Positions 3,605 to 64,000 of a stretch of 64,000 bases of DNA are shown in pieces (positions within the stretch are counted from its first letter, which is position 1; every line of letters starts with the position of its first letter). Source of the DNA: an uncultured Coriobacteriaceae bacterium (GTDB taxonomy: Bacteria > Actinomycetota > Coriobacteriia > Coriobacteriales > CADBOM01); the NCBI GenBank assembly GCA_964581165.1, contig CAZOMM010000001.1, forward strand, positions 14,560-78,559, read 5' to 3'. The translations under genes and the position numbers were made by a program. The notes under the pieces were generated by a model that worked only from the letters and a program-made list of their open reading frames with translations, was not told the DNA's origin and did no database searches.

Positions 3605-4978
3605 TTGTTTATAAAGCGGAGTACTTCCACAAAGCTTTTTAAAACTTTTAAGCGACGTATTACATTAGTAGCCACACTTGTGCTAACTGTAGTGCTTTTT
3701 CTTATCCTTCTCATTTTTAATGTTGACATGTATCGCCACCAGCTAAATGAAATCCGAGGCGCAATGAGATATGCCTTGGATATAGGGGGAAGCGATCTCT
3801 ATATTCCCGATATGGAGTTTTATGATGGCGAGGGCAATATAGAGTCTAACAACAGAGCCTTGTATCAGGGCACTGTGATTGTCTATACCGTAGAGGTTAG
3901 CAATACTGGGCTTATTGTTTCTAGGAGCGATAACGTTTATGTCAACGAGGCTGTCCTAGTAGATTCGGTGTTGCAAATCCTGACCTCCGACGAAGAAAGA
4001 GGAGAGATTAAAGAGTACAGTCTTCTGTACGAAACCCGCGAAATTACCGGTGGAATTAGAATCGCTTTTGCAGATTCCGAGGGATTAAATTCCTCCGTTT
4101 TATCTAGGGCAACATTTTCGGCTCTTATGCTTCTTGTTTCGGCTGTTGTCTTTTTGATTATTAGTTACTTTATTGCCAGAGTTTCTGTTAAACCGGTGGA
4201 AAATGCTTGGAAGTCACAACAGCGTTTTGTCGCAGATGCGTCTCATGAACTCAAAACTCCCCTCACCGTAATGCTTGCAGACAGTGACATTGTCAAAATG
4301 CACCCAGAGTCTACAGTCAAAGAGCAGATGCGGTGGATCGATGGAATTCATGATGAGGGAATCAAGATGCAAGGCCTTGTTCAGGATTTGCTTTTGCTAG
4401 CTCAAACAGAGCCTGGGAGCTATGGCGAAGAAGATACTGCCAATTTGGAGAAAATCGATCTTTCTGGTCTTGTCGAAAAGGATGTCCTGCAGTTTGAGGC
4501 ACTTGCTTTTGAACGGGGGATTGAGTTTGAAAGCGAGATTGAGGATGGTTTAAACATTAAGGGTGATCTTGAGAAGGTAGATCGAGTTGTGAGAATTCTG
4601 CTTGATAACGCCCTTAAGTATGCCAAAGGTGCAGCTGAGGACTCAGATATCAAAAACGCTGGCTTGTCTTTGAATTTAGACGAGATGTCTGCTGATGCTT
4701 TGCAAAATGTTGTAAAGGTAAGCTTGGCTAAAGGAAGATCTCAGGCTGTGCTTAAAGTTAACAATGGGGGAGAGCCGATCCCAGAAGAAGATTTGCCCCA
4801 TGTGTTTGAGAGGTTTTATAGGGGAGATAAGGCACGCACTGGGTCTGGCTCAAGTTCGGGATTTGGACTAGGGCTTGCAATTGCGCACAATATTGTTACT
4901 GGTTACGGCGGGAATATAGACGTAAGCAGCGATGCAGAAAATGGCACCACCTTTACTGTACGCCTGCCTTTGTTCTAA
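3605..4978 (+). CDS. sensor histidine kinase (HisKA/HATPase_c)
   Basis: Two TM segments, an H-box FVADASHELKTPLT and G-boxes ...GFGLGLAIA. The TTG start has TAGGAG 7 nt upstream. Confidence 0.85.
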   Translation: MFIKRSTSTKLFKTFKRRITLVATLVLTVVLFLILLIFNVDMYRHQLNEIRGAMRYALDIGGSDLYIPDMEFYDGEGNIESNNRALYQGTVIVYTVEVSNTGLIVSRSDNVYVNEAVLVDSVLQILTSDEERGEIKEYSLLYETREITGGIRIAFADSEGLNSSVLSRATFSALMLLVSAVVFLIISYFIARVSVKPVENAWKSQQRFVADASHELKTPLTVMLADSDIVKMHPESTVKEQMRWIDGIHDEGIKMQGLVQDLLLLAQTEPGSYGEEDTANLEKIDLSGLVEKDVLQFEALAFERGIEFESEIEDGLNIKGDLEKVDRVVRILLDNALKYAKGAAEDSDIKNAGLSLNLDEMSADALQNVVKVSLAKGRSQAVLKVNNGGEPIPEEDLPHVFERFYRGDKARTGSGSSSGFGLGLAIAHNIVTGYGGNIDVSSDAENGTTFTVRLPLF

Positions 4979-5219
4979 TTTGGCTGTAGCCCCGTTTTAG
5001 CGATTCTTCATGTTAAAAACCATCGCTATTGCTGGCTATTGCTGGCGAGGACTGTTTGAGTCCAGCGCGGCTTCTGCACACCCATCCGGCAATGCTGTCA
5101 ATTCTGCTTTAACATGGGGCGGTAGCGATTTGGCCTGGAGTAGCAATGTGGCCTGCTATTGCAGCAGGCCACAAACTAGAGTTCAAATCGCCTCTAACCC
5201 AAAAACTAAGGTTCAAAAA

Positions 5220-7136
5220 CTAGAGCACCGACTCTTCGATAATCTTGAGGAAGTCATCCAGTGGCCTATCTCCCAAGTTGCCCTGAGACCTCTCTCTTAC
5301 CGACACTGTGCGATCTTGCTGCTCACGATCTCCGACCACCAGCATGTAGGGGATCTTTTGTTGCTGAGCCTTAGCAATCTTGGCCTTCATAGGCTCATTT
5401 TGCTGATAAAGCTCAGCGCGTCCACCCAAGGCGCTAATTTTGGAGTGAATTTCGTTTGCGTAGTCGCAGTGTCTGTCTGCAATAGGGATAATGGCAACCT
5501 GAATAGGCGCAAGCCATAGCGGCAAAGCACCTGCGTAATGCTCTATCAAAATCCCCAAGAATCGCTCGATCGAACCAAAGATTGCCCTATGAAGCATCCA
5601 GGGTCTTTCGTCGGTATTATCTTCGGTGCGATAAATCAAGCCAAAGCGTTCGGGTAGGTTAAAGTCAACCTGCACAGTTGAGCACTGCCAAGTTCTTCCA
5701 ATTGCATCTTTTACCTTGATATCAATCTTGGGGCCGTAAAATGCTCCGTCGCCTTCGTTGATCTCGTAGTCGAGTTTGTGCTTTGCGCAGGCTTGACGTA
5801 GGGCTTCGGTTGCATGTTCCCACATGTCGTCGGTGCCAATAGACTTTTCGGGCCTAGTTGAGATCTCGGCCTCATACTTAAAGCCAAAGGTAGACATGAT
5901 GTGGTCAACCAAATCGAGTATTGCTACAACCTCGTCAACTACCTGGTCTCGTGCGCAATAGACATGGGCATCGTCTTGAGTAAAGCCGCGAGCTCTCAAA
6001 AGCCCATGCACAACTCCACTCATTTCGTGACGATAAACAGTTCCAAATTCAAAATATCTAAGTGGCAAATCACGATAGGAGTGCAGGTCGTTCTTGTACA
6101 GCATCACATGCCCAGGGCAATTCATGGGCTTTACGCCATACTCCGAATAACGAGGTTCTTCTTCGCTACCCTCGTTGATATTGAAGAAGTACATATTTTC
6201 GCGGTAGTAGTCGTAATGTCCCGAGGTCTTCCAAACATCTGCATTGTAGATATGTGGAGTAATTACCTCTTCGTATCCGCGCGCATACAGGTCTCGACGC
6301 AGCCATTCCTGCAAAATGCGAATAACTCGTGCTCCTTTGGGAAGATATAGAGGTAGACCTACACCAGCCATGGGATCCATCGTAAAGATGCCAAGCTCAC
6401 GCCCGAGTTTTCTATGATCTCTCTTTTCGGCCTCTTCGAGCCTAGTGAGATAATTTTTAAGATCCTTTTTCGAAAACCAAGCAGTTCCATAGATGCGCTG
6501 GAGCATCTGTCGCTGTGAATCTCCGCGCCAGTAAGCCCCTGCGTGCTTCATCAACTTAAAGGCTGTTAGCTTGCCGGTAGACGGGATGTGGGGGCCACGG
6601 CAAAGATCAGTAAAGTCTCCCTGGGTGTATAGGGTGATGGGGGCATTTTCGGGAAGCTCGTCTATCAACTCAAATTTGAGTTCTTGTTTAGGTAGAGCCT
6701 CTATGGCCTCGGCTTTAGAAACCACGCGTCGAGAGAAGGGCTGGTCTGCAGCAACAATTTGATGCATGCGCTCTTCGATCTCGTTTAGATCTTCAGGTGT
6801 TACTGGTCTGCCAATCTCAATATCGTAGTAAAACCCGTCTTCTATGGCCGGGCCAATTCCAAACTGTGCATTTGGATGAAGCTGCTTGATTGCTTCTGCC
6901 ATGATATGGGCCGCTGAGTGTCTAAGGATATCGAGAGCCTCAGGAGATTTAGATGTGATTATTTCGACTGTTTGGTCATCTGATATTTCGTGACTCAGGT
7001 CAACCAGCTCGCCATCTAACTTGCCTGCTAGGGCTGCTCGAGCAAGTCCGGAACCGATTTCTGCGGCTACGTCATAAACAGTCGCAGGCTGCTCAAATTC
7101 TTTTTGTGAACCATCGGGAAGCTTAATCTTTATCAC
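5220..7136 (-). CDS. thrS: threonine--tRNA ligase
   Basis: Has a TGS domain, the editing-domain HSAAHIM motif, class II core motifs and an anticodon-binding end. The likely start is the GTG at 7136, with GGAG upstream; the ORF track extends to the TTG at 7163. Confidence 0.9.
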   Translation of the reverse strand: MIKIKLPDGSQKEFEQPATVYDVAAEIGSGLARAALAGKLDGELVDLSHEISDDQTVEIITSKSPEALDILRHSAAHIMAEAIKQLHPNAQFGIGPAIEDGFYYDIEIGRPVTPEDLNEIEERMHQIVAADQPFSRRVVSKAEAIEALPKQELKFELIDELPENAPITLYTQGDFTDLCRGPHIPSTGKLTAFKLMKHAGAYWRGDSQRQMLQRIYGTAWFSKKDLKNYLTRLEEAEKRDHRKLGRELGIFTMDPMAGVGLPLYLPKGARVIRILQEWLRRDLYARGYEEVITPHIYNADVWKTSGHYDYYRENMYFFNINEGSEEEPRYSEYGVKPMNCPGHVMLYKNDLHSYRDLPLRYFEFGTVYRHEMSGVVHGLLRARGFTQDDAHVYCARDQVVDEVVAILDLVDHIMSTFGFKYEAEISTRPEKSIGTDDMWEHATEALRQACAKHKLDYEINEGDGAFYGPKIDIKVKDAIGRTWQCSTVQVDFNLPERFGLIYRTEDNTDERPWMLHRAIFGSIERFLGILIEHYAGALPLWLAPIQVAIIPIADRHCDYANEIHSKISALGGRAELYQQNEPMKAKIAKAQQQKIPYMLVVGDREQQDRTVSVRERSQGNLGDRPLDDFLKIIEESVL

Positions 7137-7166
7137 TTTTGTTTCTCCTCGATTCTCATACAAGTT

Positions 7167-7207
7167 GGAAATAAAGAGGGCCGCACTCGCTTTTGCAAGG
7201 ACGGCCC
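7167..7207 (-). terminator. putative intrinsic terminator after the zinc-ribbon membrane protein gene
   Basis: On the minus strand, a GGGCCG...CGGCCC stem (7207-7178) is followed by TCTTTATTTCC. Confidence 0.45.
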
Positions 7208-7247
7208 AGATAACTTAGGGCTAGACGCGATGGGGCCTCCTCGGATA

Positions 7248-7802
7248 TTAGTAGGTTCTATCCGATGTTCGACGGTTTCGATTGCCGTTTGCCGACTCAC
7301 GACGTTCGCGTGAATTTTGAGATGCTGTATCGCCGCGCCTTGCTGCTCTATCAGATTTACTTGGAGCAGGCGCTGCACACCAAGGACAGATCGACCATCT
7401 TGGGTCTAGTGGCTTTCCGCATTTGTAACAGGAGTTTTTGAGCTGAGAACCACAGTTTGGGCAGACCAGATAGTCATCGCAAACGGGATAGCTGCAACGT
7501 CCACATTCTCCGTAGCGCATCAACTCGCGCTGCCTGAGCAGGTAGTCCAGCTCTTGTTCTTCTTTATCGGCTAAAAGAATATTGGGCCGCATTGCCGAAT
7601 AAAGCAGCGCTCCCAAAAAGGGGATAAGCGAAATGATCCCCCATTTAACAGGCGAAACACCTCTTTTAGGTGCATCATGAATAACCCAGACTATTGTGAT
7701 GATGTAAAGCGCCACAATAATGCTGAGTCCAAAAATAGCCACAGTTTGAACTTGTGACAGCAGCTCGCTCAACTTTTCAAAACCTCCTTGCAATGCCATC
7801 AC
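7248..7802 (-). CDS. membrane protein with PLD-N-terminal-like TM hairpin and double zinc ribbon
   Basis: Two TM helices (VWVIHDAPKRG...ISLIPFLGALLY), then CGRCSYPV..CPNCG...CYKCGKPL...CPWC. Confidence 0.6.
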   Translation of the reverse strand: MMALQGGFEKLSELLSQVQTVAIFGLSIIVALYIITIVWVIHDAPKRGVSPVKWGIISLIPFLGALLYSAMRPNILLADKEEQELDYLLRQRELMRYGECGRCSYPVCDDYLVCPNCGSQLKNSCYKCGKPLDPRWSICPWCAAPAPSKSDRAARRGDTASQNSRERRESANGNRNRRTSDRTY

Positions 7803-8045
7803 CCGATAGCATGGGAGCCGTAAGCTCGGCTGTAGAGAAGGCCTATACGTCAGATTGCACTTCGCAGTCGAGCTGTTAAAGTTTAGCAGACATGTTTCTT
7901 GGTCGCATGATATGCCATTAATAGCTCCGCAAACGATTCTTTTGGTTTGGTGCTGGTTTTAGGCCTGGCTTAGGCCTAGCTTAGAGCTGGTCGTTTGATT
8001 GCAAGCGCAAGCTGGGGTAGACGCTCAGATTAAGTTTAGTGTTTG

Positions 8046-8477
8046 TTAGTGTTGGCAATTTGGAGCTTCTGGCACCTCAATGCCCAAGGCATCCGAGGCC
8101 ATCTGTCTAAGATCTTGGATAGTTAGGCAATAACAGGCTAGCGCATCAATCCATCTACGCAGACAATTTCTTCCCTTGTCTGTAAGCGTAAACATACGCT
8201 TGGCGGCACCGGTATCGGGAGTGTCCCAAGACGCGCTAATCAGCTCCTGCTCCTCCATACGTTTAAGAGTTCTATAGATGCCTGCTGCGTCGGGTTTGCT
8301 GCCGCCAAACATTGGAGATGCTGCAGCTAGTTTGACAATCCTATATCCGTGAAGGGGTTTTTTTGATTGTGCAAGAATGGCAAGGATTGTCGGCTGAGAC
8401 ATTCTAGACAGGCTTTTACCTAACTCTGCACATTCATTTAAGTCGTTGTCGCTTTTAGGATGACATCCGCTCCACAT
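8046..8477 (-). CDS. PadR-family transcriptional regulator
   Basis: ILAILAQSKKPLHGYRIVK...YRTLKRMEEQELISASWD is a PadR winged helix. AGGAG lies upstream of the ATG at 8477. Confidence 0.8.
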   Translation of the reverse strand: MWSGCHPKSDNDLNECAELGKSLSRMSQPTILAILAQSKKPLHGYRIVKLAAASPMFGGSKPDAAGIYRTLKRMEEQELISASWDTPDTGAAKRMFTLTDKGRNCLRRWIDALACYCLTIQDLRQMASDALGIEVPEAPNCQH

Positions 8478-8572
8478 TTGGTGATTCTCCTGTCAGGCAT
8501 CAGGCGGTGTCCCGCCGTTTAAATTATCTCCTCAACCTTAAGAAGCGCCGCAGCCTGATTATTCTATATCGC

Positions 8573-8608
8573 CCAAACCGTTCGCCGGATCCAAACCGTT
8601 CGCCGGAT
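8573..8608. repeat. perfect 18-bp tandem duplication CCAAACCGTTCGCCGGAT x2
   Basis: Read directly: copies at 8573-8590 and 8591-8608. Confidence 0.9.
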
Positions 8609-9102
8609 TAAACATTAGTCTTTGGGTACTCAGAGAGACCCTTGATATAATAGACCATGTCAAATATATGAGCGATGCAAAACATGGTGAGCCAACATGG
8701 TTTGTGTTGCGACAGCTCCTTATCGAACCGGCTCGAGAACATCCCATCCTGGCAAATATTGGATGTTTTCGAGTGCCGGTTCGAATATTTTCAACACCTA
8801 ATTTACTTTGAGTTTGTCTTTTAATCCCCCATTAATTCTGTTTTTGTGCTTAGCTGTCCATGGCCGGGCATCTATGCGCTTAAGTTGAATGCAACTCAAT
8901 CTAAATCTTTGTACTTTTTTGTACTTTTGCGAGATGAATAGCATGAGCAGAACGCTCCCTTTACGGAAGGTAAAAATCTTCAGTTTCCAGCAGGGCCCTA
9001 TCTTGGTTATTATTTCTGTGGTCTTTATTTCTATAGTCAAAACACGTGCGATTCGGCATGTGCGATTTAGCGATTTAGATTTTTTGAGGGTGGTTTTTGG
9101 GG

Positions 9103-56334: not shown

Positions 56335-58194
56335 TTGAAGGGAGATAAAAGTATTCCCGCCAACGGCAATGCTGGGGCTAGCTCTAATAAAACCCAGCTG
56401 CGTCAAAACAAATCTAATCGCAGAAGTTCTACAAGTTCTACAGTGAATCGAAACGATAGGGGTTCGCAGGACAGGGGATACCTTAAATCTAAAGGTGATA
56501 ATTCAAAGCAAGGTTCTAACAAGAAAGACAAGAGGTCTTTTCCAAAGTTGCGAATAATTCCTCTTGGTGGTCTTGATGGCATTGGCAAGAATATGACCGT
56601 TTTTGAATGCGGAAACGACATGGTTCTTGTTGATGCGGGGATGATGTTTCCCGACGATGATTATCCGGGGATCGATTTGCTGATCCCCGATTACACCTAT
56701 GTGCTTGAGAACTCTCACAAATTACGGGGAATCATAGTTACTCATGGGCACGAAGATCACACCGGTGCTATTCCCTATGTTTTAAAGGATCTTGATAGAC
56801 GTACAGACATATACGGATCGCGCCTGACTCTTGGCTTCATAGAAGGCAAACTCGACGAACATAATTTTAGAGATGTCGGAATGCAAGAGGTTGTAGCCGG
56901 GCAAAAGATAAAGCTTGGGATTTTTGATGTCGAGTTTTTTAATGTCAATCATTCGATACCAGGTGCTTTTGGAGTTTTTATAAAAACCCCTGCTGGTAAT
57001 GTTTTACACACTGGTGACTTTAAACTCGACCAAACTCCAATTGATGGGATCATAACCGACTTTGGAGCTATGGCTCGCTTTGCCAATGTGGGAATTGATC
57101 TCTTGATGGCCGATTCAACCAATGCCAATGTGCCTGAATTTACTAAGTCTGAGGCTGAGGTTGGCAAAGTTCTCACTGAAATTATCGGAAATGCTAAGAG
57201 ACGTGTTGTAGTTGCCTCTTTTGCAAGTCATATTCACAGGATTCAGCAGATTTGTGATGCTACGGTTAAAGCAGGCAGAAAAGTTGCAGTTACTGGTCGC
57301 TCAATGCTCACCAATACTCGCATTGCACGTGAGCTTGGTTATCTCGAAATTGATGACACCAGCATTGTAGATGCCTATCAGGTAAACGACATGCCCCGTG
57401 AAAAGATGGTTGTGCTTTGTACGGGCAGCCAGGGTGAGCCCCTATCTGCGCTTACACGTATGGCAAACGGGGAACATCGTACTATTGACATTGAGTCGGG
57501 GGATACAGTAATTATTTCTGCCTCTCCTGTTCCAGGAAACGAAAAGGCTGTTAATAGAGTTAAGAATGCTCTAGCTAAGATCGGCGTAGATTTTTACGAC
57601 AAATCCAGAGCAACGGTTCATGCGTCTGGGCATGCAAGCATGGAAGAGTTAAAGCTTGTTATGTGCATCTGTCGTCCGCGCAACTTTATGCCCATTCATG
57701 GCGAGGAACAGCATCTAAGAGCCCACGCTAGCTTGGCTGAGTCGGTAGGGATCCCTCGTGATCATATTTTTGTGCTCGAAAACGGCAACAGTCTTGAAAT
57801 ACAAGAAGGCAAGGTCTCTGTTGGCGAGCCGGTCGAAAGTGGCGTTGTCTTTGTTGAAGGCTTGTCTGTTGGAGATGTGTCGATGCTGGTTCTCAAAGAT
57901 AGAAAAACTTTGGGAGACGAGGGCGTTGCAACAGTTGTGATCATGATTAGCAAGCGCGACGGGCATCCCCTGAAAGACATCGAGGTAATCATGAGGGGAG
58001 TGAGCGGGGGAGACGACAGTGCCCTTCTTGATGAGGCCACTGTTACGATTCAGGAGACGCTCTCTCAGCTCTCGCACGACTACAGGCTTGATCCGCGTAC
58101 GCTAAAGCGCGAGGTTCGCAACAGTCTCTCCAATTTCTTATGGAAGAGATGTCGCAGGCGTCCAATGATCATCCCGATTGTTATGGAGGTTTAG
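56335..58194 (+). CDS. rnj: ribonuclease J with about 75-aa basic Ser/Lys/Asn-rich N-terminal extension
   Basis: LRIIPLGGLDGIGKNM, HGHEDHTGA, and beta-CASP plus C-terminal domains. GAGGAG lies 7 nt upstream of the TTG at 56335. Confidence 0.88.
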   Translation: MKGDKSIPANGNAGASSNKTQLRQNKSNRRSSTSSTVNRNDRGSQDRGYLKSKGDNSKQGSNKKDKRSFPKLRIIPLGGLDGIGKNMTVFECGNDMVLVDAGMMFPDDDYPGIDLLIPDYTYVLENSHKLRGIIVTHGHEDHTGAIPYVLKDLDRRTDIYGSRLTLGFIEGKLDEHNFRDVGMQEVVAGQKIKLGIFDVEFFNVNHSIPGAFGVFIKTPAGNVLHTGDFKLDQTPIDGIITDFGAMARFANVGIDLLMADSTNANVPEFTKSEAEVGKVLTEIIGNAKRRVVVASFASHIHRIQQICDATVKAGRKVAVTGRSMLTNTRIARELGYLEIDDTSIVDAYQVNDMPREKMVVLCTGSQGEPLSALTRMANGEHRTIDIESGDTVIISASPVPGNEKAVNRVKNALAKIGVDFYDKSRATVHASGHASMEELKLVMCICRPRNFMPIHGEEQHLRAHASLAESVGIPRDHIFVLENGNSLEIQEGKVSVGEPVESGVVFVEGLSVGDVSMLVLKDRKTLGDEGVATVVIMISKRDGHPLKDIEVIMRGVSGGDDSALLDEATVTIQETLSQLSHDYRLDPRTLKREVRNSLSNFLWKRCRRRPMIIPIVMEV

Positions 58195-58272: not shown

Positions 58273-59190
58273 CTAAAAAACTTCCAGTTCGTTTAGCGTT
58301 AAGCTTATAGCCACGGCTACAAGTAAAATTCCAAATGTAATTTTGAGTGCCTTTTCGGGCACTCTTTTTATTAGTGCAGAACCTAGCAATGAGCCGGGAA
58401 TGCTGCCTATTGCAAGCATTGCACCTTGGAGGTAGTCGATATGTCCGTAGACGCCGTGGGTAATAATTCCTGGAATCGATAGAAAACAAAGTGCAAGCAA
58501 AGAGACTCCTGTGGCCTCTTTAAACGAGATTCCAAAAAGCCATGTGGTCATAGGAACTATTACAAAACCTCCACCTACTCCAATGAATCCCGAAAGAAAA
58601 CCAGCAATTATTCCTATGACGATTGCTGTAAACATGTTGCGGGGTTTTAAGTCAAAACCTGCAGAGGATTTACTCGCCTGGGGGGTGCTGTTTGCATATT
58701 GTGTGTGGTCTGTCGATTGTGTACTGTCTATCGGTTGTGTGCTGTCTGTCAAAAGTGTGTAGCCTGTCTTTTTTTCGGATAAATCTCGATGAGCGTTTTG
58801 TGAGAAGTCCTCTTTTTTAAGGGCCTTTCTCATCATATTTGCACCGGTGTAAGCAATAACAATTGCGGTTGCAAACATTGAGGCTGGCCCTCCAGCTAGC
58901 TCTGCTAGCCACGATCCAACAGGCGAGAATAGAATTCCTCCTGCTCCTATAATCAGACTTAGCTTTATATTCAGGCTTTTTAGGCTTTTTGAGCGCATAC
59001 GTCCAAAAACTCCAGCAATAGAGGTTGGAAGTATCACAAATAGTGAGGTGCCTGTAGCCATGAGAGCATCTGCTCCAAATATCAGGCGTAGTAGCGGGAT
59101 TATTATGATGCCGCCGCCAACTCCAAGCAGCCCGGAGAGAACACCTACACATATGCCGCCTATTGCAGCTGCTATTAAAGAAAACACCAT
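58273..59190 (-). CDS. TauE/SafE-family sulfite/anion exporter-like membrane protein
   Basis: Duplicated 4-TM halves with GLLGVGGG and GFIGVGGG motifs, separated by a hydrophilic STQ-rich loop. The start may be the ATG at 59190 or the TTG at 59247. Confidence 0.75.
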   Translation of the reverse strand: MVFSLIAAAIGGICVGVLSGLLGVGGGIIIIPLLRLIFGADALMATGTSLFVILPTSIAGVFGRMRSKSLKSLNIKLSLIIGAGGILFSPVGSWLAELAGGPASMFATAIVIAYTGANMMRKALKKEDFSQNAHRDLSEKKTGYTLLTDSTQPIDSTQSTDHTQYANSTPQASKSSAGFDLKPRNMFTAIVIGIIAGFLSGFIGVGGGFVIVPMTTWLFGISFKEATGVSLLALCFLSIPGIITHGVYGHIDYLQGAMLAIGSIPGSLLGSALIKRVPEKALKITFGILLVAVAISLTLNELEVF

Positions 59191-59666
59191 TGCTTCTTTG
59201 CCACTGCTCCTTTGTCGCTGCTTTTCAAAAAGGGGTCGCACCCCCAAGTTGATGGCTTTTTATCCTTGCTCTTTTGTTTGCTTCAGTTTATGCAATGAAT
59301 ACTCTCAACGAAGATAGCCGAAGACAGTGTTGCTTTTGCAGTGATTATATTTGCGTTCTGCGGGCGTTCTGCAGATGGATAGCAATGGAAATAATCCTAA
59401 CTTTCTATACTCACTCTCGGGTATTACGGTGAGCTTGAGAAGTTTCCCAATGGAAATAATGTGAATATAAAGACAACAGAGCAAATTTCAGATCTAGTTC
59501 AGTTGAAAGGAATACTTTATAAAGCGAGATGGGACATCGATGGAGACATTGATCTTATTGGCGACCGAGCAGCGACCCCCCACCCCATTTCATCTGAGCG
59601 GTCAGCCCTGCAACCATCTCCTGCTACGTGCAGCGCTACTGGTTTAGGCAATGGCGCTGCACGTTT

Positions 59667-59858
59667 TTATGCATACAGCGGAATGCCCCTAAGCTCAATC
59701 CCAGTGTTGCTTGCCGTGCGGCCAAACTCCTTTTCAGATAGACGAACAGCATAGGGCGAACTGCCTTCTGCCATGAGTTTTCGAAGACTTTTGGCACTCA
59801 CATTGCGCGATGACTTTACTTCAATAGGAACAACTTGAGCATCTCGTGCCTGAAGCAA
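59667..59858 (-). pseudogene. 3' remnant of a DUF4143-type AAA ATPase gene
   Basis: Only the C-terminal about 60 aa remain (...VVPIEVKSSRNVSAKSLRKLM...GIPLYA). A stop codon lies immediately upstream and there is no N-terminal ATPase body. Confidence 0.6.
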
Positions 59859-59880
59859 ACTAACCGCAATTAATCAGTTC

Positions 59881-60282
59881 CTAAATAGCCCAGTTTTCTA
59901 CCTTTAAGTCCGGAACTCTTTCAAACTCACGGGTGTTGTTCGTTATCAGTGTTGCATACTCTGCCTTTGCGTGTCCGGCAATCAGGGTGTCAAGCGATCC
60001 GATTAGCGTTCCTTGTTTTTGCAGGTAATCCCGTATTTTTCCATATTCAATCGCTGCGGATTCGCCAAAGGGCACAACGGTTAAAGGGAGCAGGAATCTC
60101 AGGAGCGATTGTTCGTTTTGCCTTGGATTTGAGCTATGTGCCACGCCGTATTCCAATTCTGCTAAGGTGATAGCCGAAATGCATAGCCCGTGATCAACTT
60201 CAGCTTGAAACCTTTGCAAGACCTTGAAAGGTTTTTGCTTCATGACGTATATGCAGATGTTGGTGTCAAGCATGTATGTCAT
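59881..60282 (-). CDS. vapC: type II toxin VapC (PIN-domain ribonuclease)
   Basis: YMLDTNICIY N-terminus, conserved acidic residues and 133 aa. It overlaps vapB by 4 nt. Confidence 0.9.
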   Translation of the reverse strand: MTYMLDTNICIYVMKQKPFKVLQRFQAEVDHGLCISAITLAELEYGVAHSSNPRQNEQSLLRFLLPLTVVPFGESAAIEYGKIRDYLQKQGTLIGSLDTLIAGHAKAEYATLITNNTREFERVPDLKVENWAI

Positions 60283-60509
60283 AATTCGTCTCTTTCTTGA
60301 TTCGCTCCCTGATCCCGTCCGTTCTGAAAGATATCATCTGTGAAACCGTCAAGCCCCTCTTGAAAGGTTTCCCACAGGGCATCTTTAGGTACGAGAATCA
60401 CTGCTTTTCCTAGTTTTTGTACAACAACCTCGTCTACGTCAAAACGAAACTGCTTAGGGATACGAACGGCCTGGCTTCTTCCGTTTTCAAAAATTTTAGC
60501 TATTACCAT
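60279..60509 (-). CDS. vapB: type II antitoxin VapB (AbrB/SpoVT-type)
   Basis: AKIFENGRSQAVRIPKQFRF swapped-hairpin motif, 76 aa. Confidence 0.88.
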   Translation of the reverse strand: MVIAKIFENGRSQAVRIPKQFRFDVDEVVVQKLGKAVILVPKDALWETFQEGLDGFTDDIFQNGRDQGANQERDEL

Positions 60510-60542
60510 AGCGTCACCTTTGTTTCCTTGATTCTCTCAGTG

Positions 60543-60558
60543 ATATATCATGATATAT
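60543..60558. promoter_or_regulatory. perfect 16-bp palindrome ATATATCATGATATAT in the vapBC promoter region (candidate VapB operator)
   Basis: Read directly. It lies 34-49 nt upstream of the vapB start and also contains the direct repeat TGATATAT x2. Confidence 0.55.
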
Positions 60559-60671
60559 ATCGTATACCAAGATTTTGAATGTTCCTGTAGATGAATTAAT
60601 GCAGGGAAAGACGGGAAAGAGTTCTCCCACTCTCGCACTCCGGTACCACTCGCTTCAACTTCTTCGGCGAG

Positions 60672-61812
60672 CTAGCCTGTATGTTTCCTAGGCCTCCAAT
60701 AAACCGTGGATCTTCCTCGTTTGGCTGTCTCCAACAATCCTTCTTCTACCATGGCCGCTAGATAGCGTCTTACTGTGCGCTCGCCAACCTCTTCAACTTT
60801 TTCAGAAACTTCGGAAGCAGAAATCTTTTCGCGTTCGTTGAGTAGGCGATCAACAATTCCGTGCACTTGCTCGTATGTTCGACCTGACCGGCTCCGGCTC
60901 CCTTCAGCCGACACCGCTGCGGTTCCATTACTAGGCATGACAGCGGGAGCGGATACAAAGGCAGTAAAGACATCGCCGTCTTCCATTTAAAACAAAAGCA
61001 TCGGGCAGCCATTTCTCACAAAAGCCGACAAGCTCTTCATAGGCTCTTATCAGGTTCTTCTTACATGTCAATCTGTCGTCATAGCGATCTTTGTCTTGTC
61101 TCTGCAAGATTGCATCAGTTCGGTAGAGCGGAAGAATGTCGAAAATTGTTTCCTCTCGTCCGAGCAATACTACAGAAGCAAGATTGAATCCTTTTTCTCC
61201 TGATATCGGATCGCGGCCGTAAAGCCTAGCACTTCGAAGAAGTTCGTCGTCGTTTAAACTCAGCCAAGGATGTCTTGGGTTTGCGTAATGAATTTCACGC
61301 CTGACCTCATCTAACAATTCCATTTCAAGATCGTCTTCGCTCACCCATGGGTATACAGTGCGTTCCGTGAAAAACCCCTGCTTGCGAATTATCAGCACCG
61401 CTTTATGGGCCTCGGTTTTCACCCTTACATCGGCATCTGCGACTCGGTCGTAGACGGTGCCCTTAAACTCGTAAAGAACCGGCCCCATCGGAACCCAAAC
61501 TCTTATGACAACTTTGTCGTCTCCTACCGGGATCCTCTCGATCTCAGTCATAGGTGGACTGTTGAAGAGTTCGGGATTGTTGGTGACGTTTACAATGTTT
61601 CGTTCGATCGACTTTGCTGCTGCCTCAGAAACACCTTCTACTGATCCATCATCCAAAACGCCCAGAAAAATATTGCCACCTTGACGGTTTGCAAACGAGC
61701 AAATGGTCTCGTAAACATCCTTTTCAACTCTGCCGCCACAACGTTTAAATTCCACACTAACGCCTTCGCCTATTGCGAGATATCTTTCGAGCCTTTTGTC
61801 CACTGTAGCCAC
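60672..61812 (-). pseudogene. AlbA_2 (Schlafen-like) / wHTH putative regulator gene disrupted by internal deletion plus frameshift
   Basis: ORF A (61812-60931) carries AlbA_2 (EGVSVEFKRCGG...SFANRQGGNIFLGV). ORF B (60986-60672), in another frame, carries ..EDGDVFTAFV.. plus a wHTH. The ATPase-like core expected between them is absent. Confidence 0.6.
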
Positions 61813-61829
61813 CTTAGCCGCCCACGCTT

Positions 61830-61885
61830 ATTCTGGACATCAAACTGGACAGATTCTAACAATGTCCAGAATAAGTGTCCAGAAT
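61830..61885. promoter_or_regulatory. inverted/direct repeat set ATTCTGGACA ... TGTCCAGAAT x2 upstream of the AlbA_2 gene
   Basis: ATTCTGGACA at 61830-61839, ACTGGACA at 61844-61851, and TGTCCAGAAT at 61863-61872 and 61876-61885. Confidence 0.5.
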
Positions 61886-62311
61886 ATGACTTGATGGCTC
61901 GCTATAAACATTATTTCGAAAGGGTGGAGTAAACCCTACTTCTGGTCTGCCTCTGCGAGTTTTGTGGGGATGAAAGTTCTGCACGATCCTATCCGACATC
62001 TAGTCTTGCGATATACACGTTTAGGTTACTGTTTGTGCTCGGAAGCATTGCTATCGCACATGGACAAGTAGATCGAGTTCATCTTTGCGGCGAACTTGTG
62101 CTCGGTGGGCACAGGTGTGGTTACAGCAAATAGGAGCTCGCAGCGTGCTACGAACTGGCATGCAAACACCTTGAACGCCATGAGGGGGTGAGGTCCAGCG
62201 CAAGCGTGGATTTATCGCTTATTTCGTTCAATATCATAATTTTGTTCTGCTATTGGGTATAATTTCAAAATATTCAACGCACAAATCGTCTTAATAAAAA
62301 AGGTGACCATC

Positions 62312-63694
62312 ATGTTAATCCGTTTCTCCTGCAAAAACTTTAGATCAATCGGAACCGAACCCATAAAATTCGAAATGGTCTCCTCTTCTAAAATTCAGGC
62401 GCTACCAGAACACATATGCGACTCAAAAGACGGGGCAAAAATTTTGCGTTACGGCGTGATCTACGGTGGAAACGCAAGCGGAAAGAGCTCTCTTGTCAAA
62501 GCGTTTCTTTTTCTCAATACTGCAGTGTCTGGCGGAGGAATTCCAGCTGATACCTCAAGGGAGTTTTGTCGCGTTGGCGCTGGTTACGTCAATGAGGAAT
62601 CTACCTTTGACATCCAGTTTTCTGTGGATGGAAAAGTCTTCGATTACGGCTTCAGCTGCGTTTTAAGTCAATTCACCGTCACATCGGAATGGCTCATCGA
62701 TCTTAATGGATCACCCAAAACTCTTTTCTCTAGAGAAAGAGATGCGATCGAAATTGGCAAGCGGCTCGAGAGTAAGCTTTCAGACGACGAGCGGGCGCGC
62801 ATGCGAATCTATAGCGAAGATTTCCTTGGATCGGACTTTGGGAAACACAGCCTCTTTTTGCCTTTCATTGGTCGGGGAAAAGTGATAGCGCCAGACTCGC
62901 CGCTACAGGACTTAGTGAAAGCTTTTGCGTGGTTTACTGATGGAATCGATATTATGCTTCCCGGGCGAGGTCCATCAAAGGTGGAGTTTTACACCGATGG
63001 GAGCACGCTCGATTCGGTCGCAGAACTCCTTGCATCGTTAGATACAGGCATCTTGTCTCTAAAGAAAACTCCCGTTCCATTCAATGATCTCGAAAAGAAA
63101 ATTCCTGCAGCACTAGTCGTTGCAGTTAAGGACATCCTTCGTTCCAATCCTCCAAAAGACGACAGCTCCAAGCTCGTTATGACGCTTCGCAACGAAAACG
63201 TATTTGTCGGCTTCGAGCGAGACGGATTCAACGATCCAACTGCAACCACGCTGGAAATTGGTCATACCGGATCCTCTCTGACCTTTGACTTTGGCGATGA
63301 GTCAGATGGCACCAAGAGGCTGTTTGATTTCATGGATATCCTGTTCACGAAAAGACGTGACACCGTTTTTATCATCGATGAACTCGATCGCAGTCTTCAT
63401 CCTATGTTGACGGCACAGATTGTGAAACTTTTTACTGATGCCCATGCCGACGACTGCTGTCAGCTCGTCTTTACTACTCACGAAAACAGCATCATGACCG
63501 ATGAGCTGTTTCGCCGAGACGAAATCTGGTTCGTCGACAGGAACGAAGACGGAACATCCACGCTCTACCCACTCGACAGCTTCAACCTGAGAAGCGATGC
63601 GCGCATAGGCAAGCAGTACCTCGAGGGGCGCTACGGCGGAATTCCAATCCTTGCGACAACAAAGGCGCTCTCGGCAATTGAGGGGAACAGATAG
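62312..63694 (+). CDS. ABC-type AAA ATPase of the defence-island class (COG1106 / AAA_21-like)
   Basis: N-terminal MLIRFSCKNFRSIG, Walker A GGNASGKSS, signature-like ESDGTKRLF, Walker B VFIIDELDRSLHP, H-loop FTTHE and C-terminal YLEGRYGGIP. The ATG at 62312 has AAAGGTGA upstream. Confidence 0.75.
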   Translation: MLIRFSCKNFRSIGTEPIKFEMVSSSKIQALPEHICDSKDGAKILRYGVIYGGNASGKSSLVKAFLFLNTAVSGGGIPADTSREFCRVGAGYVNEESTFDIQFSVDGKVFDYGFSCVLSQFTVTSEWLIDLNGSPKTLFSRERDAIEIGKRLESKLSDDERARMRIYSEDFLGSDFGKHSLFLPFIGRGKVIAPDSPLQDLVKAFAWFTDGIDIMLPGRGPSKVEFYTDGSTLDSVAELLASLDTGILSLKKTPVPFNDLEKKIPAALVVAVKDILRSNPPKDDSSKLVMTLRNENVFVGFERDGFNDPTATTLEIGHTGSSLTFDFGDESDGTKRLFDFMDILFTKRRDTVFIIDELDRSLHPMLTAQIVKLFTDAHADDCCQLVFTTHENSIMTDELFRRDEIWFVDRNEDGTSTLYPLDSFNLRSDARIGKQYLEGRYGGIPILATTKALSAIEGNR

Positions 63695-63695
63695 C

Positions 63696-63965
63696 ATGCC
63701 ACCGCTAAATGCATTAGAAACCTGGTCGCGCAGAAGCGAATCGAACCAGCGGCGGCCGCTCAGGCCAAAAGGCCATCGCGCCCACCGGGGGCTTTCAGCC
63801 CCTCCTGCTTTAAGACTAAACTTACGTTTAGGTCACATTACTGCAAAAGAAAAGTTTATTTCCCTACGTAATGAATTTCTTATAGACAATTCACCCCACC
63901 TTCTTATGCTCGAATCAAACAGCACTGGCGACTTGCTTGCTATCGTCTGCGGCTTCTGTATTTAA
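63696..63965 (+). CDS. 89-aa ORF starting 1 nt after the ATPase stop; no recognisable domain, possibly a chimeric remnant of the ATPase partner gene
   Basis: TAG-C-ATG spacing. The first 35 codons are GC- and Arg-rich and the rest is AT-rich, with an abrupt composition break near 63800. Confidence 0.2.
   Translation: MPPLNALETWSRRSESNQRRPLRPKGHRAHRGLSAPPALRLNLRLGHITAKEKFISLRNEFLIDNSPHLLMLESNSTGDLLAIVCGFCI
63787..63812 (+). terminator. weak terminator-like hairpin
   Basis: GGGGGCT-ttc-AGCCCCT followed by CCTGCTTTAAG. Confidence 0.3.
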
Positions 63966-64000
63966 TATTCGCATGTCGTTCTGAGACATTACGTCGCTTA

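Follow-up and report, generated by a model that had tools for sequence, protein, structure and literature searches.

What is the DNA that lies past the TauE-like gene at the 3' end of this window, and how much of it could still function? The window is a 64-kb stretch of contig CAZOMM010000001.1 from an uncultured Coriobacteriaceae bacterium, and we call its last part, positions 59191 to 64000, the islet. The original prediction for the islet was that most of its modules are inactivated, that it may be a fossil defence locus and that, of its parts, an ATPase module had the best chance of being still active or of being novel. Our analysis keeps the decay and changes the survivor: with a probability of about 80%, the 3' end of the window is an eroded patch of acquired defence and addiction genes in which an AbiLi ATPase has been orphaned and only vapBC is intact. 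The features concerned are listed below, with lengths in nucleotides (nt) or amino acids (aa) and with open reading frames given as ORFs.

59667..59870, minus strand: 3' stump of an AAA_14/DUF4143-type ATPase gene, about 65 codons, PADLOC PDC-S01 class.
59881..60282, minus strand: vapC, PIN toxin of the tRNA(fMet)-specific VapC class, full length at 133 aa (Pfam, NCBIfam, PDB).
60279..60509, minus strand: vapB, antitoxin of the AbrB/MazE fold, 76 aa (Pfam MazE_antitoxin, NCBIfam).
60543..60558, no strand: perfect 16-nt palindrome ATATATCATGATATAT, 34 nt upstream of the vapB start.
60672..60986, minus strand: C-terminal linker and winged helix of the AlbA_2 gene, a 104-codon ORF in the other frame (tblastn; weak Pfam match to a winged helix-turn-helix, or wHTH, domain).
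60931..61812, minus strand: N-terminal part of the AlbA_2 gene, 277 codons plus 16 out-of-frame codons, 293 aa (Pfam SLFN_AlbA_2, E=2e-15).
61829..61886, no strand: three exact copies of TGTCCAGAATA, one inverted and two direct, just upstream of the AlbA_2 start.
62312..63694, plus strand: abiLi-type ABC/AAA_21 ATPase gene, full length at 460 aa (PADLOC AbiLi, Pfam AAA_21).
63696..63791, plus strand: 5' stump of an abiLii/RloB Toprim-nuclease gene, about 30 codons (alignment to an intact 232-aa homologue).
63792..64000, no strand: unrelated, AT-richer DNA joined to the RloB stump (GC content, end of homology).
Stop codon at 63915-63917, minus strand: reading frame entering from the window end, 27 codons visible (…SDVMSQNDMRILNTEAADDSKQVASAV*), convergent to the RloB stump.

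The evidence that carries this reading begins with the two genes at the right-hand end. The ATPase matches the PADLOC AbiLi model over residues 2-457 (E=3.3e-77) and Pfam AAA_21 well above the cut-off (E=1e-29, 104.8 bits versus 27), with a readable Walker A (GNASGKSS), Walker B (FIIDELD) and H-loop (THE). It is 86% identical at 100% coverage to the 460-aa protein P0002, its homologues number thousands, and no solved structure gave a sequence match. The ORF that follows starts with an ATG at 63696, 2 nt after the ATPase stop codon, and stays open for 89 codons. Its first 16 residues (MPPLNALETWSRRSES) are identical to those of the intact 232-aa RloB of locus L003; past residue 16 it diverges through a 3-nt and a 1-nt indel, before the TEG...TE region (...FVLTEGRNTE... 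in L003). The DNA homology between the window and L003 covers 62271-63791, which takes in only about 95 nt of RloB, and ends where the GC content of 100-nt segments falls from 0.63 (63700-63799) to 0.36 (63800-63899). The original prediction had correctly described an AAA_21 ATPase, a domain-less coupled ORF and a composition break near 63800; since the RloB homology ends at the GC drop, the latter two are a single truncation breakpoint, and the ORF is the 5' stump of RloB. Neither Pfam nor PADLOC finds a domain, RloB or AbiLii match in the 89-codon ORF, while the intact partner in L003 scores 65.8 bits with Pfam RloB and E=1.5e-15 with PADLOC AbiLii. In all the neighborhoods of ATPase homologues that we examined (86% identical in L003-L005, 53% in L087 and L088, 46% in L089-L092), an RloB of 232-258 aa comes next, starting within a few nt of the ATPase stop codon. 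The convergent frame at the window end terminates 124 nt past the end of the RloB homology.

By architecture, AbiL, RloAB and PARIS AriA/AriB are all pairs of an AAA_21 ATPase and an RloB/Toprim protein, and AbiL has been grouped with PARIS among two-component systems of an ABC ATPase with a TOPRIM/OLD protein (2026 review, PMC13064643). AAA ATPases neutralise TOPRIM_OLD toxins, and the network of the same work links neutralising ATPases to RloB-type partners, with AbiLii as the toxic effector (Ernits et al., PMC10440598). The pair in the window resembles AbiL of Lactococcus (AbiLi/AbiLii) in that its ATPase matches AbiLi and RloB starts directly after it. Unlike AbiL, it retains only about 30 codons of the effector and so lacks the defining two-gene architecture; to PARIS AriA the ATPase is only distantly related (PADLOC AriA, E=5e-28, C-terminal part only). 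In the mechanism that we propose, AbiLi would be an intact sensor and neutraliser whose Toprim/OLD-type effector, AbiLii/RloB, was cut after about 30 codons. With the neutraliser or sensor kept and the effector lost, no abortive-infection activity would be expected, so the AbiL remnant presumably no longer defends for want of its effector. For a pair that resembles a toxin-antitoxin module, losing the toxic member and keeping the ATPase would be the order of decay that does no harm. The orphan ATPase might also have been retained on its own, to neutralise RloB-type toxins that come in from outside, an idea that we consider less likely than the small RNA interpretation discussed below.

Several observations on related loci touch the AbiL pair. 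In L090 (JGI 3300029043), positions 5376-6073, an AbiLi-type ATPase is intact and its RloB partner lies in two pieces of 100 and 132 aa, although three sister contigs have RloB whole; this is a second case of effector-first decay. At L087 1214-8244 and in L088, an AbiLi-RloB pair with an ATPase 53% identical to that of the window lies between a type II CBASS operon (E2, SMODS cyclase, SAVED-HNH) and an AAA_14/DUF4143 ATPase whose gene is broken into two ORFs. That an AbiL pair keeps such company in L087 supports the idea that the gene combination of the window came from a defence island. Upstream of the 86%-identical AbiL pair of L005, at 3746-9090, there are a resolvase/HTH_7 gene and two genes resembling Mu-transposase-C, at the place where L003 and L004 carry a sugar-nucleotide/NeuB cluster, which suggests that the AbiL pair of L003-L005 borders a mobile-element insertion site. 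Within the window, the segment 63720-63790 (TGGTCGCGCAGAAGCGAATCGAACC) was considered as the reverse complement of a tRNA 3' end or att site and rejected, as ARAGORN and Rfam returned nothing even at E<=5; it is the conserved 5' coding sequence of RloB.

The vapBC pair is, from its sequence, the sole complete module of the islet, and its intactness had been predicted together with a palindromic operator. VapC matches Pfam PIN (E=7e-20), exceeds the cut-off of the NCBIfam equivalog NF047863 (178.7 versus 140 bits) and aligns over its full length with the tRNA(fMet)-specific VapC structures PDB 3zvk and 3tnd (E ~1e-30); the acidic residues D6, E42, D98 and E119 can be read from the translation. 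VapB passes the equivalog NF047862 (112.5 versus 100 bits), and the two genes overlap by 4 nt (60279-60282). The palindrome ATATATCATGATATAT occurs once in the window, for an expectation of 0.02, and a promoter-like site on the minus strand (60579-60550) overlaps it, so it is probably the operator of VapB or VapBC. With its acidic residues, overlapping antitoxin and palindromic operator, the pair is like the tRNA(fMet)-specific VapBC modules (Shigella MvpT/VapC, Leptospira VapC, Rickettsia VapC2), from which it shows no notable differences, with the initiator-tRNA target predicted from family membership. We propose that VapB would bind the upstream palindrome and neutralise VapC, whose class of PIN nucleases cleaves initiator tRNA, and that vapBC may persist because the loss of an addiction module is counter-selected. 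The closest plasmid copy, on a Flavonifractor plautii plasmid, has 66% DNA identity. In the plasmid and phage collections this copy and a 79-nt match to the ATPase were the only hits, with none among the phages.

Immediately after vapC in the direction of transcription lies the first remnant, an open frame of 67 codons, preceded by a stop that lies a little past the stop codon of vapC. It matches positions 374-428 of the 439-position PADLOC PDC-S01 model (E=4e-11), in agreement with the prediction that only about the last 60 codons of a DUF4143-type ATPase remain. The 5' ~85% of the gene (N-terminal ~370 codons) is absent, and the break falls within ~10-20 nt of the vapC stop codon. PDC-S01 corresponds to AAA_14 + DUF4143 ATPases, as the L087 ORFs with those Pfam domains match it at E=3e-49 and 4e-29. 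The stump itself has no match to Pfam AAA_14 (PF13173) or DUF4143 (PF13635), and it did not align with the L087 DUF4143 fragment in a direct comparison, so its assignment goes through the PDC-S01 models. It is therefore like the PDC-S01 ATPases in its 55-60 C-terminal residues, which align to the model ends, and unlike them in having neither the AAA_14 P-loop nor DUF4143, being a tail only. ATPases of this type adjoin AbiL pairs and CBASS in L087. In our proposal, a gene for a PDC-S01-type ATPase would have shrunk to its last ~65 codons.

The AlbA_2 gene upstream of vapBC had been described as broken by deletion and frameshift, and comparison with intact homologues bears this out. Searching the window by tblastn with P0392 (478 aa, 69% identical) and P0121 (58%) gives colinear matches in two frames, in which homologue residues 5-277 map to 61791-60973 and residues ~375-467 to 60986-60699 in the other frame. 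The C-terminal ORF corresponds to residues 375-467 of P0392 and ~374-469 of P0121, so that about 97 internal codons (residues ~278-374) are missing. They belong to the HATPase_c_4-like part, a domain whose match is weak even in the intact P0121. The joint lies at 60983-60986 (minus-strand sequence AATGGAAGAC), and as both flanks could give ATGG, it suggests a microhomology-mediated deletion. Compared with the AlbA_2-HATPase_c_4-wHTH proteins, annotated as "putative DNA binding domain-containing protein", the window gene codes for an N-terminal stretch of 277 residues that is colinear with and 58-69% identical to members of 475-493 aa, and its wHTH aligns; unlike them, the window gene lacks ~97 internal residues and has its halves out of frame. 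A single internal deletion of ~0.29 kb, which also shifted the frame, would account for the inactivation. Upstream of the gene, a promoter-like site overlaps the TGTCCAGAATA copies, a cluster that is probably an autoregulatory operator of the wHTH protein. No PADLOC model matches the AlbA_2 family, so a role in defence is by association only.

The wider setting of these genes was examined through RNase J (56335-58194), whose best named matches are Coriobacteriales and Coriobacteriia metagenome-assembled genomes (MAGs) and of which a 79-kb NCBI contig carries an identical copy. A genome scan with TauE as the single-protein query returned no matches, and an alignment of RNase J was needed instead; its scan provided 80 Coriobacteriia rnj loci, one genome per species. 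The closest relatives by RNase J identity are L007 (80%), L009 (77%) and L008 (74%), and all three share with the window the dapA-rnj block, followed by a TauE homologue that adjoins it directly in L007 and L009 and lies 5 kb further in L008. Past TauE, L007 codes for an Fe-S protein, a molybdopterin oxidoreductase and others, and L009 for two MFS transporters and an SDR, all unrelated to the islet. When the eight islet products were compared with the 80 loci by tblastn, TauE was the sole match, and islet genes were found in 0/80. The strand-symmetrised tetranucleotide distance of the islet is 0.0178, while same-size core windows average 0.0110 (standard deviation 0.0011, maximum 0.0136), so that the islet exceeds all 109 of them. 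Relatives' differing genes, the 0/80 loci and the deviant tetranucleotides indicate, at the level of sequence, that the DNA past TauE is accessory and probably horizontally acquired.

Most of what had been predicted for the islet as a whole agrees with these results. Housekeeping synteny does end after TauE, the islet genes are not shared by the related loci, and three of the four protein modules are truncated against full-length families, instead of being members of short-protein families. Intact homologues were found for AlbA_2 (P0121, P0392) and RloB (L003), and the PDC-S01 models have ~440 positions. The composition of the islet deviates in tetranucleotides but not in overall GC. The idea of a fossil defence locus stands for the AbiL and PDC-S01 remnants and their L087 context but not for vapBC and AlbA_2, which are not PADLOC defence systems. 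The one claim that fails is that the ATPase module is likeliest to be active or novel, as it is a clear AbiLi without its obligatory RloB/AbiLii partner and vapBC is the only complete module.

We thus see the islet as horizontally acquired DNA beside TauE, a patch of defence and addiction genes that deletions would have eroded. No complete defence system is found by the PADLOC component models, in which only AbiLi and the PDC-S01 tail match. Judged by its sequence, the islet is ordinary and built from known gene families, with an ATPase that is a known AbiLi and not a new protein. It opens no long-standing question; its value lies in the annotation and as a clean example of defence-island decay, in which the Toprim effector is lost first and the addiction module outlasts its neighbors. 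Automated annotation would list a lone AAA family ATPase with several hypothetical proteins; the correct annotation is what is left of an AbiL pair, of a PDC-S01-type ATPase and of an AlbA_2 regulator, vapBC alone being whole.

Three other explanations have to be weighed against this decay. The ATPase and the ORF behind it could form an active, possibly novel two-gene module joined by translational coupling, as the full-length ATPase with its three readable motifs, the ATG 2 nt past its stop codon and the 89 open codons would allow. However, the ORF begins with the 16 N-terminal residues of an intact 232-aa RloB, its DNA homology to RloB stops at 63791 with indels just before, the rest has no family match and coincides with the sharp fall in GC, and the ORF overlaps the end of the convergent reading frame. 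As an RloB of 232-258 aa also follows all the homologous ATPases examined, we regard this explanation as largely refuted and give it almost no credence. Hardly more credible is that both halves of the split AlbA_2 gene yield working proteins, one of 293 aa with the AlbA_2 domain and one of 104 aa that would act as a wHTH regulator. Neither frame is interrupted, the joint has created the ATG (60986) with which the second begins, and the clustered operator-like motif upstream is intact, but the ~97 residues present in P0121 and P0392 are missing from either product. Searches by HMMER, over 1.8 billion cluster representatives, and by word index also gave a family of largely uniform length: 118 of the 119 other homologues listed have ~470-493 aa, the exception having 374 aa, and the sole member of ~290 aa among the homologues listed is this genome's own.

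Less improbable than these two, though still unlikely, is that some of the breaks are artefacts of assembly, since the source is a MAG contig; the junction at 63791 would then be chimeric, with an intact AbiL pair in the actual genome. The stump/vapC junction and the AlbA_2 lesion are both seen in more than one assembly, as two Logan contigs assembled separately (from runs SRR7039257 and SRR7039263) match 59703-62644 at 100% identity, and a third Logan contig carries 56067-59686, with RNase J and TauE called in the same arrangement. At 63791, the 3-nt and 1-nt indels relative to L003 before the break suggest decay, a sign that is weak at 78% DNA identity. Several points weigh against the eroded, acquired patch that we prefer. 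The independent assembly L001 ends at 62644, short of the 63791 junction, which leaves 62645-64000 beyond its coverage and a chimeric MAG join possible there. The GC content of the islet (0.469) matches the genome background (0.463 +/- 0.013), so the acquisition was not recent or the donor had a similar GC. The relatives compared belong to other species or genera (RNase J 74-80% identical) and are fairly distant. As had been predicted, no integrase, other recombinase, transposase or tRNA att site was found in 59100-64000, with the right end beyond the window. A flanking repeat was not found either, ARAGORN and Rfam gave no tRNA or Rfam family there, and tblastx of the non-coding gaps of the islet against all fetched loci revealed no remnant genes. 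Last, the AlbA_2 family and vapBC are absent from PADLOC as defence systems, so the term "defence" is secure for just two remnants, that of AbiL and that of the candidate system PDC-S01.

Where the eroded patch begins on the left depends on an element that the original prediction had missed:

59522..59674, plus strand: candidate structured small RNA of ~150 nt with a terminator (homologous copy in L007, 14512-14668, plus strand).

It emerged from a blastn comparison of the non-coding gaps of the islet with all fetched loci, which gave one match, between 59525-59592 and L007 14515-14585. The extended alignment has ~150 nt of conserved blocks that end, on the plus strand, in a GC-rich hairpin and a T-run. 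The predicted closing stem is GAGAUGG/CCAUCUC, the inner stem bears a C-rich apical loop (CGACCCCCCACCCCAUUUCAU), and the intrinsic terminator is a GC hairpin at 59626-59664 followed by five T. RNAalifold on the two sequences predicts 30 pairs, 4 of them changed on both sides, and each sequence by itself folds more stably than its shuffled versions (z=-3.95 for the window copy, -2.24 for that of L007). In L007 the copy occupies a 0.8-kb intergenic gap between an MFS gene and a methyltransferase gene, far from TauE. As neither genome has a plus-strand gene after the element, an independent small RNA is likelier than a leader. It has no Rfam match, a covariance model found no further copies in 1.5 Mb of fetched loci, and two pattern scans of JGI metagenomes gave zero matches and four chance matches. 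With only two copies known, the RNA remains a candidate. That it represents a new family of trans-acting small RNAs of Coriobacteriia, is a core gene and marks the left edge of the acquired DNA is a tentative reading that we think rather doubtful. By analogy, its exposed C-rich loop (CCCCCCACCCC) may pair with G-rich sites of the Shine-Dalgarno kind, in the manner of 6C or RsaE. If the RNA is indeed core, the acquired DNA starts at ~59670 and not at 59191; the stop codon of the ATPase stump sits in the T-run of the terminator. For a bacterial class that has been little studied, the element offers a modest lead.

Two sets of short repeats precede the candidate RNA, upstream of TauE:

59353..59372, plus strand: direct repeat GCGTTCTGC-GG-GCGTTCTGC, with copies at 59353-59361 and 59364-59372.
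59383-59395 and 59448-59460, plus strand: two exact copies of the 13-mer CAATGGAAATAAT, 65 nt from start to start.

The first had been described as a tandem 9-mer. Both copies are present, but the GG spacer gives a period of 11 nt, so they are not strictly head-to-tail; GCGTTCTGC has one more copy elsewhere in the window, and as 3/100 shuffles contained at least three copies, the 9-mer itself is not rare. The direct repeat CAATGGAAATAAT, by contrast with its chance expectation of 0.14, is exact and has exactly two copies in the 64-kb window, and the pair can be taken as non-random, as at least two copies were found in 0/100 window shuffles. It is not conserved in L007. A reading of the TauE leader as a riboswitch or small RNA was rejected, as it had no RNA-structure signal (z=0.17), and a match to Rfam Bacteroidales-1 at 59388-59466 is insignificant (22 bits versus a gathering score of 60). 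The CAATGGAAATAAT copies are possibly protein-binding or operator sites upstream of TauE, which is a guess.

A separate observation concerns base composition. The GC content of the window genome is 46%, while the syntenic region of L007, L008 and L009 has 56-64%, so that the window and its closest relatives differ by a large compositional shift inside one lineage.

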